Sequence record: OZ346186.1
Length of the DNA stretch: 50,013 bases
Direction: 5' to 3' (one strand)
From: a phage
Both the position numbers and the translations under genes were made by a program. Shown here one piece after another: positions 29,766-43,501 of the stretch (position 1 is its first letter; every line of letters begins with the position of its first letter). The notes beneath the pieces are model-generated. The model searched no databases. It was not told the origin of the DNA and saw only the letters and a program-made list of their open reading frames with translations.

Positions 29766-30171
29766 TAAAGGCGATTATCTGGAGTTTTACGAAAGAGATC
29801 CGACAGATACTCTGAAAGAGGAATCGCACCAGATCGGGGCGTTTCAATGGGTAACTTATGCTCATCCTGAATTACTGGCATGGCATACGAAAAACGAGGG
29901 CGACAAGGGAATCGCCACCGCAATGATGGATCAGCAAGCCGGACTCGTTAAGGGCGTAAGTGATTTTATCATCCTGATTGGATTAAAAGGCCGTTACCCG
30001 TTTGCAGCAATTGAGATGAAACGCGTCAATAAGTCAGGCAAGGGGAAGGCTTCACCAGTCAGCAAGGAGCAAAAAGCCTTCTTGCGCCGTGTGCGTGAGC
30101 TTGGCGGATTCGCTGCCGTAACATACGGATATAAGCAATTCATGATCGCGGTAGAATACATGATGAAATAG
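29752..30171 (+). CDS. VRR-NUC domain nuclease
   Basis: 139 aa; D...E.K nuclease core (DFIILIG...AIEMKR) typical of VRR-NUC, commonly paired with phage helicases. Confidence 0.6.
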   Translation: MAMTDKGDYLEFYERDPTDTLKEESHQIGAFQWVTYAHPELLAWHTKNEGDKGIATAMMDQQAGLVKGVSDFIILIGLKGRYPFAAIEMKRVNKSGKGKASPVSKEQKAFLRRVRELGGFAAVTYGYKQFMIAVEYMMK

Positions 30172-34985: not shown

Positions 34986-36569
34986 TTACCCCAGCAATGT
35001 TGGATTTACGAAAACAACGCCATTAATCACACAAATATAATTTCTTTCTTCAAGCATCGGCAGCAGTTGCGTTTCCATACGCTTCATTACGCCAGCCTGA
35101 CCAACAAACGGCTTAACTTTTCGTGCAGCCTCATATATGGCGCGCACATTCAAGATTCCCTTGTTAGCCTTACCGTGTCGAGTGATAATCTCGATTAGTT
35201 TACCCATTTCAGCATCATCACCAGCATAGCCAGAAGCGTTGGCGGCGCTAATGTATGTTTTGCTCAACTCGCTAAACATCAGCAGTGCTTCTTGAACGGT
35301 TTCAACTTCAATCTCTTTCGACTTCTGAGGGTATCCACCAGGATTAAACCAGTTGCGGATAGTGTGCAAAACCGAAGCAATCCTGATCACCTGCTTATCC
35401 ATTTTGCCAAGAGCACCGCGCAGCATTGTATGCGAATACTTTCCGCCATCGGCAAGGTGCGGTTCCATCTCCTGACGAGCCATGTTAAGAACTCGCATTG
35501 CTGATTTGCTGATCTTAAGCTGGATGTTTGATTCACTCATGATGTTATGGATCAGCTTGAAATATTGGCTTTTCAGTTCTCCATCAACAGGTTCATAAGT
35601 AGAATCACCGTTATCATCAACAAACTTTCTACGGCCTAAAAATGATTCCTCACGCACAAGCAAATAACGCTCACTCACACCGATACCGCGCGATCCTGCA
35701 TCCATGATGGCATTTATTGTTTCATCCTGGGCAATTACCGCCATACAGCCAAGAGCTTTAAAACTCATATTGTTGTCAGCGTTTGCACGAGCTATAGAAA
35801 CATGACCATGATCCCATGCTTTTAGCACAAGTTCGCTGTTGGTTTTACGTTCGCTATTGGCATATGTCAGACCTAAAAGGCTGTTAATACTTGTTGCCTC
35901 GTCTGAAATCACAGCAAAGTTACCCTGGCGATTGTTGATTCTTGCAAGTCCTTCCGGCGTTGTGTCGGACACAGGGAAAACGATGTCACACATCTTTTCC
36001 AGTTTTTCTTCCAGATCTTCTTTCTCCTGGTACAGAGACTCCATATCAGCGCCGGAGCGCTCGCTTTTCATCTCTTTTGCAAGACCTGCCAACTTTGCCT
36101 GAATCTTTTTTCTTTCCTTCTTTCGATGATCATTAATTCTTTCCACTTCAGCAACCATAGGAGCAAGTGCCAGGCTGTTAACGGCAGATTTACCAGTTGA
36201 TGGAGGCTGGCTTGTGACAACGTAAAGAGCGGTTGGTTGATCCGTTCCGTGATACTCAACCGTGAAGCGTCCAAGCATTGCAGCAGATACACAGCCGATA
36301 AAATGCATATATGCCGATGATTCAGGGAATTGAACAGATCGAGCAATGTTTCGCGCCAACTTTCCAACAACATCAACATCATTGCCAAGAGAAATTACAG
36401 GGTAGCGATCGTTTCCGTTATTAACATCATTAACCTCACCCCAAAAGCTGGACGATTGACGGTATCCGTTAGCCTGAATGGACACGCGCACCGGAGACAA
36501 TCCTTGTGCATCAGCTAATTCGATAATTTGTTTTGGTGTTAGTTTATTGGTTTCAAACGAAAAATTCAT
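34986..36569 (-). CDS. P-loop replication ATPase (helicase/primase-associated, putative)
   Basis: 527 aa from ATG 36569 (SD aaggag); Walker A SQPPSTGKS and Walker B-like AVISDE. Confidence 0.55.
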   Translation of the reverse strand: MNFSFETNKLTPKQIIELADAQGLSPVRVSIQANGYRQSSSFWGEVNDVNNGNDRYPVISLGNDVDVVGKLARNIARSVQFPESSAYMHFIGCVSAAMLGRFTVEYHGTDQPTALYVVTSQPPSTGKSAVNSLALAPMVAEVERINDHRKKERKKIQAKLAGLAKEMKSERSGADMESLYQEKEDLEEKLEKMCDIVFPVSDTTPEGLARINNRQGNFAVISDEATSINSLLGLTYANSERKTNSELVLKAWDHGHVSIARANADNNMSFKALGCMAVIAQDETINAIMDAGSRGIGVSERYLLVREESFLGRRKFVDDNGDSTYEPVDGELKSQYFKLIHNIMSESNIQLKISKSAMRVLNMARQEMEPHLADGGKYSHTMLRGALGKMDKQVIRIASVLHTIRNWFNPGGYPQKSKEIEVETVQEALLMFSELSKTYISAANASGYAGDDAEMGKLIEIITRHGKANKGILNVRAIYEAARKVKPFVGQAGVMKRMETQLLPMLEERNYICVINGVVFVNPTLLG

Positions 36570-36596
36570 TGATGATAACTCCTTTTTGATGCGGCA

Positions 36597-39322: not shown

Positions 39323-39369
39323 ATAATATACCAATCAGAGGCGCATCGGTTTTAACAAAAAGTGCTATT
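39323..39369 (-). promoter_or_regulatory. conserved box + TATTAT (minus strand)
   Basis: box 39349-39369 abuts stop TAA of 39369..39635; -10-like about 39323-39328. Confidence 0.5.
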
Positions 39370-39894: not shown

Positions 39895-40163
39895 TTCTTG
39901 ATCTCCTCAGCGATAAACTTCAGGACTTTGCGCAAAAACACTTCATTATTGATGGTCGCTGGCAATTCTTCTTTTACTTCTTGCGGCAGGTAAACGTTGC
40001 CATGCCAGGTTAAGCAATCGTAGTTGATACGATAAGAGCAAAGCCACTCGCAATCGTTATCCGCTTCCCAAATGCAGAGTTGCAGAACATCACCGAAATC
40101 CTCAACAGTCAGATCCAGACCGTGACGCTTTGCAAAGTTGAAAGTGGTTTTGCTGATGTTCAT
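39891..40163 (-). CDS. hypothetical protein (first gene of leftward early block)
   Basis: 90 aa; SD caggag; downstream of box promoter 40201-40246. Confidence 0.55.
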   Translation of the reverse strand: MNISKTTFNFAKRHGLDLTVEDFGDVLQLCIWEADNDCEWLCSYRINYDCLTWHGNVYLPQEVKEELPATINNEVFLRKVLKFIAEEIKK

Positions 40164-40200
40164 TTGCTTTCTCCTGATGGGTATCTCGTTTCGATGTGTG

Positions 40201-41385: not shown

Positions 41386-41638
41386 GGCATTAATTGGAGT
41401 TTTGATTGCAATTGCTACCCTGACCGGATGCGAAAAGGCATCGGAATCAACGGTTGTCGTAGGCGTGGAGTCAGATTTCAAAGTCGGTCGCCTGTTCACT
41501 GTTGACGGATGCACAGCATACAGATTCTATGATAACGGTCGCGCGATCTATTACACCAATTGCAAAGGCGCAACGGATAGCACGTACAACAGCGGAAAGA
41601 ACGTAATGCACCAGCAAGTCACAACAGATATTAAATAG
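41378..41638 (+). CDS. lipoprotein
   Basis: 86 aa; signal peptide MNKALIGVLIAIATLTGC nearly identical to that of the Cor-like gene; stop TAG embedded in box. Confidence 0.55.
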   Translation: MNKALIGVLIAIATLTGCEKASESTVVVGVESDFKVGRLFTVDGCTAYRFYDNGRAIYYTNCKGATDSTYNSGKNVMHQQVTTDIK

Positions 41639-41678
41639 CACTTTTTGTTAAAACGCCAGGCGCAAAACCTGGCATAAT
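41634..41678 (+). promoter_or_regulatory. conserved box + hairpin + CATAAT
   Basis: box 41634-41654 includes stop TAG; hairpin gccagg..cctggc; -10-like 41673-41678. Confidence 0.5.
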
Positions 41679-41710
41679 AGCCTCATCGAAACGAGATTGA
41701 GGAAAACAAA

Positions 41711-41896
41711 ATGGCACGTCGCATCACCAAAGACCTTAAAGTCCTGAACAAAGAAAACGTAGTTAAAATTCTGGTTATCTGGGGCTACAACGAAGAAACA
41801 GCAAAGCAGAAGGTAGAGGCAGGTTATGACCTGGCTGTAAAAGCAATGCCAAACGACGACGCCAAAGGAATTGCAAACTATGTAGCTTTCTTTTAA
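41711..41896 (+). CDS. hypothetical protein
   Basis: 61 aa; SD gagga; conserved leader. Confidence 0.5.
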   Translation: MARRITKDLKVLNKENVVKILVIWGYNEETAKQKVEAGYDLAVKAMPNDDAKGIANYVAFF

Positions 41897-41911
41897 TTAG
41901 CAGGTGAATAA

Positions 41912-42097
41912 ATGAAAACGAAATTAGTCCATAAATCAGAAATCAAGATCGGCGATACTGTGATTCACAACGGAGAGCTTAGAACGGTTGGCAAAGAGTC
42001 AATAAGCCACGATGAATTTATGGGGATTTTGTTGTTCGGTGACTCTTATCGTCTTGGTTACAAGATGGTTGAGCTTGTGGAAGAAGTGAAATTCTAA
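41912..42097 (+). CDS. hypothetical small protein
   Basis: 61 aa; SD aggtga; pattern SEIKIGDTV...G.LRTV shared with 42345..42527. Confidence 0.5.
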   Translation: MKTKLVHKSEIKIGDTVIHNGELRTVGKESISHDEFMGILLFGDSYRLGYKMVELVEEVKF

Positions 42098-42141
42098 ATA
42101 GCACTTTTTGTTAAAACTCAAAAACGATAACCAGGCATAAT
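42097..42141 (+). promoter_or_regulatory. conserved box + CATAAT
   Basis: box 42097-42117; -10-like 42136-42141; followed by about 200-nt leader. Confidence 0.5.
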
Positions 42142-42344
42142 AAATCACATAGACGGGCGGCAAGGATTGCTGCGGGAGAGGAGCAACGCAGGGGCTTGAT
42201 CGAAGTGTCATGATTCCCAACCGTTAGGCCAGAACTATCACACTCGCCACCAGGCAGAACGCTAGATAGGTCACTGAGCTGAGGCTACCGACGAAGTGAA
42301 GCCCGTCACCAAAGATTAAACGATTATTTATGTGAAAGGGGTTA

Positions 42345-42527
42345 ATGATGGATAAGATCATCAAAATGAGCGAAGTCAAGCCGGGAATGATGGTTAAGTT
42401 TGCTGGCAAATATCGCCTGGTACTGGATAACTGCCGAAAAGAGAACATTCTCACCATTCGCGTTAACGGCAAGGCGCAGCTATTCGCCCCCACCTCAGAT
42501 ATTAATGTTGAGGTCAGAATTAAGTAA
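42345..42527 (+). CDS. hypothetical small protein (paralog-like of 41912..42097)
   Basis: 60 aa; possible start at 42348; preceded by about 200-nt leader. Confidence 0.5.
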   Translation: MMDKIIKMSEVKPGMMVKFAGKYRLVLDNCRKENILTIRVNGKAQLFAPTSDINVEVRIK

Positions 42528-42595
42528 TAAGCCAGGGCCGGATTTCCGGCCTATAACAAGAAATAATTTTGTTAAACCAATCAGGAGAAATCACC

Positions 42596-43501
42596 ATGTT
42601 AAAACTTGCTGACATTAAATTCCCGATCACCTTCGAATCTCGCGGCGTTGGTCATTTCATGTTTACCGACGAGAAGACATGCACTAAGTTTAACGAATAC
42701 GGAAGTCCAAACGCTTCAACAATGGAGATTGAACACTTCATTGAAGCGCACAATAAACACTACAACTCACTCAGAGACTACGGTTACGCAATGCCAGGCT
42801 ACACTTGCTTGCACTATAAGCCATACAGGGGCCAGGTGTTACCAGTGCGCTCACCGGAACGCGCAGAGATTCCGATGGTCCATATGAAAACCTGCGACTA
42901 CAAAAAGCTGTGGTGCTTAAGTGTGGACAATATCAAGTATCCGATCACGTTCCATACGACTGGTAACTCAACGATTCGCTTCACATCACGCGACAATGGC
43001 GTTTATAGCGATGGTACGAAATCAGAGTTGAAAGTTGATTTCTTTGTTAATGGTCACAACAAATTCAATCCACACAATGAAGAGGATAAGGTGTACTACG
43101 TGGAAGATATTACAAAACACTTGTTTGGAGAAACACCATTCGGCGGCGGAAAGACGTCAATTCAGAAAATCATTGGCGAGGAGATCCACAAAGCTGCTAC
43201 CGAAATGAAAGCGCCTGGAGGCTGTAAGATTGATAAAAGCGACCTTGTCACCATTCGTTCAAAGATTGGCGGAGTTGAATACGAGGGCGCAATTGAAAAA
43301 ATGCCGCTCGGCGCTTCAATCATCGGCATCAAAGACGACAACGGCGATTGGCATGATGTTTCTTTCCCGATCAAGCGTATCGAAGTGCACGACGACTTGA
43401 TTTGCCTCCTGGCGCATCATGGTAGCTATAAGAACAATCCGTTCTCCGCAGAGCTAAACATCAAGCGCGGAACGATGGTTAAGTGGAAGGTTAAAGTGTA
43501 A
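42596..43501 (+). CDS. hypothetical protein with internal tandem domain duplication
   Basis: 301 aa from ATG 42596 (SD caggag); two repeats each containing IKFPITF / IKYPITF. Confidence 0.55.
   Translation: MLKLADIKFPITFESRGVGHFMFTDEKTCTKFNEYGSPNASTMEIEHFIEAHNKHYNSLRDYGYAMPGYTCLHYKPYRGQVLPVRSPERAEIPMVHMKTCDYKKLWCLSVDNIKYPITFHTTGNSTIRFTSRDNGVYSDGTKSELKVDFFVNGHNKFNPHNEEDKVYYVEDITKHLFGETPFGGGKTSIQKIIGEEIHKAATEMKAPGGCKIDKSDLVTIRSKIGGVEYEGAIEKMPLGASIIGIKDDNGDWHDVSFPIKRIEVHDDLICLLAHHGSYKNNPFSAELNIKRGTMVKWKVKV

Follow-up and report, generated by a model that had tools for sequence, protein, structure and literature searches.

The putL and putR RNAs of phage HK022, about 70 nt long and consisting of two stem-loops, act on the host RNA polymerase without a protein partner (PMC9378689). 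The RNA element described here is, like put, encoded by coliphages and located downstream of an early promoter, lacks a ligand-sensing platform and, in some lineages, stands ahead of long operons containing terminators. However, it measures about 160 nt and is built around an internal loop and a three-way junction, whereas put comprises two stem-loops within about 70 nt, and a covariance model of the element found no match at E ≤ 10 in positions 20000-40751 of HK022. HK022 is moreover temperate, whereas the element-bearing phages are virulent. The resemblance to put is therefore one of context and presumed logic, and antitermination by the element is a prediction made by analogy.

Three further groups of structured RNAs share some of its features. 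Riboswitch aptamers and orphan leader motifs likewise occupy the 5' UTR and possess a closing P1 helix, multi-helix junctions, covarying stems and invariant unpaired nucleotides, but the element differs from riboswitch aptamers in having no expression platform, a stable P1, unrelated downstream genes and no match among 4,227 Rfam models. Work from the Belasco laboratory reportedly described 5'-terminal stem-loops that stabilize E. coli mRNAs, for example in the ompA 5' UTR; as in these, a helix lies a few nucleotides from the 5' end of the element and a hairpin-only allele occurs in related phages, although the element adds about 140 nt of strongly conserved, complex interior to such a simple hairpin. 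Finally, the phi29 pRNA and the bacterial 6S and decoy RNAs are structured RNAs acting in trans, comparable to the element in size (120-180 nt), in the early promoter and in the combination of a closing helix with a three-way junction; in contrast to them, the element is associated with no phi29-type packaging system, lacks its own terminator, always forms part of an mRNA and shows no similarity to Rfam families.

Searches with Rfam 15 (4,227 models) gave no match at gathering score in the whole window, nothing overlapping the element at E ≤ 10 (positions 41900-42600) and nothing at E ≤ 5 in seven homologous loci. ARAGORN detected no tRNA or tmRNA gene in the window, and a tRNA-like nature was rejected, the ACCA found 3' of P1 in the window being replaced by GCC, ACA, UAC or UAA elsewhere. 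Literature searches by phage group, topic and sequence strings found no description of the element, the lone sequence match being an unrelated IscB spacer. Since membership of the put class fails on size, architecture and homology, and membership of the riboswitches fails on expression platform and gene coherence, the element is an undescribed orphan RNA family with its own fold, among the conserved structured leader RNAs. Complex, strongly conserved RNA folds with no assigned function are rare in the best-studied phage-host system.

The 42097 promoter and its leader

The window, the whole 50,013-nt stretch analysed here (OZ346186.1), belongs to a T1-like virulent siphophage (Drexlerviridae, Tempevirinae, Warwickvirus), and its positions 41633-42531 are about 96% identical to Escherichia phage tunus. 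It contains 15 copies of a 21-nt box, AATAGCACTTTTTGTTAAAAC, against a chance expectation of 0.02, every one of them followed by a -10 hexamer of the CATAAT/TATAAT type. This excess bears out the promoter that an initial sequence-only reading had placed at 42097-42141 on the plus strand, with its box at 42097-42117 and its -10 hexamer CATAAT at 42136-42141. Further examples lie at 30167, 31208, 41634 and 47365 on the plus strand and at 39349 and 40226 on the minus strand. Each box is located about 22 nt upstream of its -10 hexamer, a spacing too long for the TTGTTA within it to serve as a -35 hexamer, and the box may instead be an UP element or be bound by some factor of the phage or the host. 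Motto, Lumpael and the metagenome contig L354 have a variant of the box, AGCACGAATTGCTAAA, upstream of their elements.

For 13 of the 15 boxes, the first start codon preceded by a Shine-Dalgarno sequence is 72-83 nt away from the first nucleotide of the box, corresponding to leaders of about 24-32 nt, and for one it is 112 nt away (leader of about 60 nt). Only for the 42097 box does this distance amount to 248 nt, giving a leader of about 197 nt, in agreement with the earlier view of an unusually long leader (about 200 nt) in a genome where most leaders are about 30 nt. Promoter geometry would place the transcription start at about 42147-42149, 3-5 nt 5' of helix P1. The short box leaders have in common the motif CAUCGAAACGA followed by GAGGA (e.g., 41683-41710, and 40150-40180 on the minus strand), which suggests a common translation-initiation or processing signal.

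The same reading had seen no convincing open reading frame before the ATG at 42345, and indeed no plus-strand ORF of at least 20 aa is present within 42090-42344, the window copy of the element carrying stops in all six frames. Homologous copies vary in length from 158 to 165 nt, with two invariant anchors spaced by 114, 115 or 116 nt, so that no reading frame is kept. The short ORFs called over the element by some annotators use a TTG located in P4 as start codon and lack a Shine-Dalgarno sequence. A protein-coding reading was thus rejected, given that the frame is not kept and that the changes are helix-compensatory rather than codon-like; a real ORF in the region, which would have argued against a structured RNA, was not found in any consistent frame.

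Fold and conservation of the 42150-42310 domain

The fold was drawn by hand from ten divergent copies, and a covariance model was then made on the window sequence. Its single match in the window, at 42150-42310 of the plus strand (206 bits, E = 3e-43), delimits a structured domain of about 160 nt with a G+C content of 0.58, against about 0.44 for the window as a whole. The candidate structured RNA proposed from sequence alone, as either a cis-regulatory leader or a stable small RNA, stands, but its extent, given as 42118-42344, does not: positions 42311-42344, the final 34 nt, serve translation initiation as in any ordinary leader, being unstructured and A/U/C-rich, with UUAAAC and the Shine-Dalgarno sequence AAAGGGG at about 42333-42339.

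The domain comprises ten helices, arranged as P1, the P2 hairpin, Px, a 6x6 internal loop, P3 and a three-way junction with the P4 and P5-P6 arms. P1 is a stable GC-rich helix of 7-8 bp, formed in the window by GACGGGC at 42152-42158 and its partner at 42301-42307, the very complementarity (gacgggc/gcccgtc) that had been noticed at about 42150 and 42300. Compensatory changes affect all seven of its pairs across lineages (GGGCG/CGCCC, GUCGACAG/CUGCCGAC and GACGGGUG/CACCUGUC). The P2 hairpin GCAA-GGA-UUGC (42160-42170) has an invariant GGA loop, and three of its four pairs covary (GCA/UGC, UGC/GCA, UAUA/UAUA). The 5' strand of Px (42171-42173) pairs with 42296-42298 through GC, AU, UA or GU pairs. 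It is followed by the 5' strand of the internal loop, GGGAGA at 42174-42179, invariant across copies as NGGAGA and facing the equally invariant GACGAA at 42290-42295. P3 joins GGAGC at 42180-42184 to GCUaCC at 42284-42289, with A42287 bulged; all of its cells are paired, and its middle pair alternates between A-U (17 sequences) and G-C (16 sequences). The 3' strands of the domain accordingly occupy 42284-42307.

The P4 arm (42186-42224; helices ACG/CGU, GGG/CCC and CUUGA/UCAGG, loop UCGAAGUG) is near-invariant in all lineages over its 39 nt, even at Watson-Crick pairs, while the other stems drift freely. Its rare changes are compensatory, G-C being replaced by A-U in KMI8 and C-G by U-A in contig L354. 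The P5-P6 arm (42227-42280) consists of P5a (GG, CAG / CUG, CU), P5b (CUAUC/GAUAG) and P6 (GCC-tetraloop-GGC), and contains a conserved internal loop, ACACU / AGAACGC. Covariation was recorded in five of five pairs of P5b (100% paired), three of five of P6 and four of five of P5a, one P6 pair being C-G in 19 sequences and G-C in 14.

For quantification, all copies were realigned to the covariance model carrying the window fold, because plain MAFFT misaligns the variable stems. Among the 33 distinct sequences, 95.2% of cells fall in standard pairs, a percentage that the fitting of the alignment to the model inflates in favour of the structure, and 28 of the 45 pairs are changed on both sides, with the sequences forming about six clades, so that fewer independent events underlie the compensatory cells than their counts suggest. 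When partners were slid by 1-3 columns as controls, only 29-41% of cells were paired and 3-9 pairs were changed on both sides, and none of 500 shuffles reached the observed covariation score. The middle pair of P3, the P6 pair mentioned above and all P5b pairs are not alignment artefacts, since invariant flanks anchor them. RNAalifold applied to the model-fitted alignment returned essentially the same fold, with 41 pairs, 23 of them compensated. Comparison of the homologues thus shows that 42150-42310 forms a real, selected RNA fold, upholding the structure conservation expected of the candidate.

The folding energy of the single sequence is unremarkable (z = +0.65; 146 of 200 shuffles fold as well), and the minimum-free-energy fold of the window sequence differs from the comparative one (-45.6 vs -33.9 kcal/mol). 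A complementarity of 7 nt within 200 nt is about what chance would provide. The inverted repeat and the folding energy being ordinary on their own, it is the comparative evidence that makes this leader significant.

Some minor features of the fold may be added. At 42211 and 42225, the window copy differs from nearly all others in having U instead of G; one of these changes creates a U-U mismatch in P4c, and both may reflect sequencing differences or slightly deleterious variation. A further 4-bp helix, GGCY/GGCY (42195-42198 with 42283-42286; alignment columns 48-51 and 146-149), is possible in all sequences, though not at the same time as P3 and P4b; it could represent a second conformer or a mere palindrome effect. 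A pseudoknot between AGUG of the loop and CACU of the internal loop was rejected, since its sole variant, G to A, is uncompensated and better explained as a U-G to U-A change in the pair closing the P4 loop.

Distribution and genomic surroundings

A sensitive blastn search with 42142-42344 as query retrieved homologues of 72-98% identity in 172 phage records. About 21 of these are T1-like, with 93-98% identity across the whole leader, and the core is 72-82% identical in unrelated phages. The carriers comprise Dhillonvirus (including SSL-2009a, HK578 and PNS1), Jilinvirus and relatives (Arya, HeidiAbel_Bas97, Lumpael, sortkaff, IME279, MQ-4 and PT1) and other Drexlerviridae (KMI8, PHB17 and Motto). 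With the covariance model, at least 36 loci and at least 33 distinct sequences were recognized, in some Drexlerviridae, nearly all Dhillonvirus and Jilinvirus-like phages. Since Arya has a contractile tail, the family includes a myovirus lineage besides siphoviruses, and its carriers infect Escherichia, Salmonella, Klebsiella, Enterobacter, Serratia and Sodalis. Complete genomes contain one copy each.

Carriage is near-universal in Dhillonvirus, with 134 full-length element matches against 154 genomes possessing the polymerase gene. The element is at least 95% identical in 131 of 170 matching records of this genus, while for the DNA polymerase gene 140 of 158 records show only 90-95% identity; the element is thus better conserved than this essential gene. 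Homology between phage groups ends at the element edges, with unrelated flanks, and an all-against-all BLAST of ORFs revealed no protein family shared by the three groups within 2.5 kb on either side; the apparently shared ORF families near the element proved to be spurious ORFs overlying the element itself. Sequence comparison of element and flanks shows that the element has been exchanged horizontally, on its own, between phages.

No copy was found in 5,426 complete E. coli genomes or in a collection of 72,556 plasmids. Pattern scans, in which most raw matches occurred by chance and the covariance model served as filter, yielded at least 20 true matches in IMG/VR viral contigs, one among 12 matches in genome contigs (a 42.8-kb phage-like contig binned as Cereibacter) and at least three among the 120 metagenome matches listed. 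Sequences of coliphage type occur in the records of Campylobacter phage A144, Pseudomonas phage Motto and a MAG labelled Cereibacter sphaeroides; these are of the Dhillonvirus, Tempevirinae and Jilinvirus-like types, respectively, and the host or bin labels of all three are probably wrong. In the GenBank records checked, the element is mostly unannotated, and some records call short ORFs across it.

The promoter is a constant companion of the element. Recognizable -35 and -10 (sigma-70) hexamers precede it, in sense orientation, in all 23 copies whose flanks were read, and P1 begins 7-11 nt 3' of the -10 hexamer in these copies, which would place the 5' end of the RNA about 0-5 nt from P1. From these promoters we infer that the element is transcribed as the 5' end of an early mRNA. 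On its 3' side, a linker of 21-48 nt (mostly 24-36 nt) leads to the start codon in 20 copies; it is A/C-rich, often contains UUAAAC and ends with a Shine-Dalgarno sequence. Because this linker has the normal leader length of the present phage, the element resembles an insertion at the extreme 5' end of a standard leader. No canonical intrinsic terminator lies between element and first ORF in the 20 copies scanned, the window included, and weak hairpins with no U-tract follow the element in a few other lineages. Neither a conserved anti-Shine-Dalgarno pairing nor a recognizable processing site was found.

More than 12 unrelated families, PHROGs or orphans with no functional annotation, are represented among the first genes 3' of the element. 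In the window, the first gene (42345-42527, plus strand; phrog_8121) encodes a 60-aa protein with no Pfam or PDB match and a low-confidence AlphaFold model (pLDDT 51.6), and it is gained or lost together with the element in Warwickvirus. It is the last of three consecutive genes of 60-61 aa around the element, the others being 41711-41896 and 41912-42097, both missing in swan01 and ityhuna. Downstream of it, a GC-rich hairpin (GGCCGG-AUUU-CCGGCC, 42535-42552, plus strand) that has no U-tract and is not called by the terminator scan is missing in swan01 and FritzSarasin. The leader of the next gene, gaaataattttgttaaaccaatcaggagaaatcaccatg at 42556-42598, closely resembles AAATAATTTTGTTTAACTTTAAGAAGGAG, the leader of T7 gene 10 with its translational enhancer; the motif UUAAAC recurs 3' of the element in many lineages.

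The transcription units headed by the element vary among lineages. It precedes a 12.6-kb replication operon in SSL-2009a; in Arya, a unit that begins at the primase terminator and comprises gp42 and the lysis genes, followed on the circular genome map by the morphogenesis genes; and about 25 small early genes followed by terminase in T1-like phages. In Dhillonvirus, a conserved strong terminator (GGCCCGC-loop-GCGGGCC plus U-tract) lies 520-760 nt downstream, after the first gene, and leaves no room for a promoter before orf50. Comparable terminators were also found 635-704 nt downstream in Motto, L112 and L153, and strict scans covering 1.5-2.5 kb of downstream sequence revealed no intrinsic terminator for the window copy or for about half of the lineages. 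In SSL-2009a, the gene directly following the element (36050-36592, minus strand) encodes a K/D/E-rich low-complexity protein and is followed by a terminator at 36022-36041, inside the replication operon; the first-gene protein of Dhillonvirus varies from 71 to 180 aa between isolates.

About 92 T1-like phages, FritzSarasin among them, have neither the element nor the 60-aa gene and carry at the same promoter only UAGGGCGGCACGGCGUCGCCC, a 19-nt GC-rich 5' hairpin equivalent to a Jilinvirus-type P1 closed by a pentaloop and followed by a standard leader. This hairpin is either a deletion scar or the ancestral hairpin whose loop received the element. As most relatives express the same downstream genes without it, the element is dispensable in Warwickvirus.

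Possible roles of the element

The reading tentatively placed first is that of a 5' leader module acting in cis, whatever the gene behind it, which would bind a conserved host machine in a put-like manner and additionally protect the 5' end. As the first RNA to emerge from the host RNA polymerase, the element would fold co-transcriptionally and act constitutively, in cis, on its own transcription unit via that machine, the most plausible partner being the transcribing polymerase itself. The predicted effect is a put-like gain in processivity, with read-through of downstream terminators, while the GC-rich P1, about 0-5 nt from the 5' end, would shield the mRNA from 5'-end-dependent decay; no ligand would be sensed to switch the downstream gene. 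The invariance of the paired P4 arm across host genera points to sequence-specific recognition by a conserved host macromolecule, and action in cis would agree with the strict promoter-proximal sense position where long operons begin, with the terminator of Dhillonvirus and with the hairpin-only allele, as well as with the unrelated first genes, the missing shared protein family and the promoter lying directly upstream in every copy examined. However, an accessory RNA acting in trans would explain the patchy, horizontally exchanged distribution and the invariant base-paired arm just as well, the element is dispensable in most Warwickvirus, neither the window nor about half of the lineages yielded a downstream terminator, and a 160-nt fold with two junctions is unlike the 70-nt, two-hairpin put RNA. 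The cis-acting module is therefore preferred only slightly over action in trans.

In that second possibility, nearly as probable, a stable RNA of about 160 nt would be cut from, or outlive, the 5' end of the early mRNA and, as a decoy, bind or sequester a conserved enterobacterial protein or a small signalling molecule, in host takeover or anti-defence, with the downstream genes as passengers. Such a role suits an accessory of T1-like phages (about 21 records with the element vs about 92 with the hairpin only) that is the one thing common to unrelated phage groups (72-82% identity, flanks of no homology), is missing from host genomes and plasmids, and comes first in the transcript of an early promoter, in a region of small variable early genes. 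The 39-nt P4 arm, invariant at Watson-Crick pairs, again suggests recognition by a macromolecule, and P1, by joining both ends, would make a compact, nuclease-resistant unit. Yet the element has neither its own terminator nor a recognizable processing site, no conserved partner protein is encoded nearby, and the promoter-proximal, sense position of all copies examined would be needless for an RNA acting in trans. A classical riboswitch, i.e., an aptamer for a host metabolite or signal with cryptic gating such as Rho-dependent termination or a translational effect, is unlikely: the 5' UTR position, the conserved, covarying, aptamer-like fold closed by P1, the invariant junction and internal-loop nucleotides and the universally possible GGCY/GGCY helix, incompatible with P3 and P4b, would all suit it, but the downstream genes, from more than 12 unrelated families, have no functional coherence, P1 is a stable GC-rich helix of 7-8 bp rather than a marginal switching helix, the generic, unstructured linker carries no conserved terminator or anti-Shine-Dalgarno pairing, and no Rfam riboswitch matches even at E ≤ 10.

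It is a little less probable still that the element is only a 5'-end stabilizer or insulator, possibly self-cleaving, with an interior that is a tolerated ornament or a ribozyme leaving a defined message 5' end. The proximity of P1 to the inferred start (about 0-5 nt) in all lineages, the P1-only hairpin at the same place in about 92 relatives and the resemblance to an insert at the 5' end of a leader of standard length are consistent with this; since a simple hairpin would suffice, however, the interior need not be conserved above the polymerase gene, and no known self-cleaving ribozyme family matches. A function at the DNA level, such as an origin of replication, a packaging site or a signal for single-strand initiation, is very improbable, and so is a small protein gene. 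In Dhillonvirus and Jilinvirus the element does adjoin primase and helicase genes, some annotations place short ORFs over it, and plus-strand frame 2 is open in 25 of 29 copies, but its constant coupling to a promoter in sense orientation, the strand-specific G-U pairs, substitutions that preserve helices rather than codons, lengths and anchor spacings that keep no frame, the stops in six frames of the window copy and its dispensability in T1-like phages all argue against both.

A broader proposal, more unlikely than likely, is that of an RNA-only effector exchanged horizontally among unrelated virulent coliphages that would reprogram or disarm a conserved host machine with no phage protein, either by making RNA polymerase terminator-resistant via a non-put fold or as a decoy or sponge against a host RNA-binding defence or regulatory factor early in infection. 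As a modifier of RNA polymerase, the element would represent a second, structurally unrelated solution to RNA-only antitermination; as a decoy, it would extend the counter-defence repertoire of phages by a class of RNA. Under either reading it merits annotation in records that now leave it blank or carry spurious ORFs. Carriers plating on E. coli K-12 are available (tunus-like T1 relatives, Dhillonvirus of the HK578/SSL-2009a type and members of the BASEL collection) and, together with the natural hairpin-only "knock-out" alleles, make the element experimentally tractable; in FritzSarasin, that hairpin is located at about 1750-1800 of its record.
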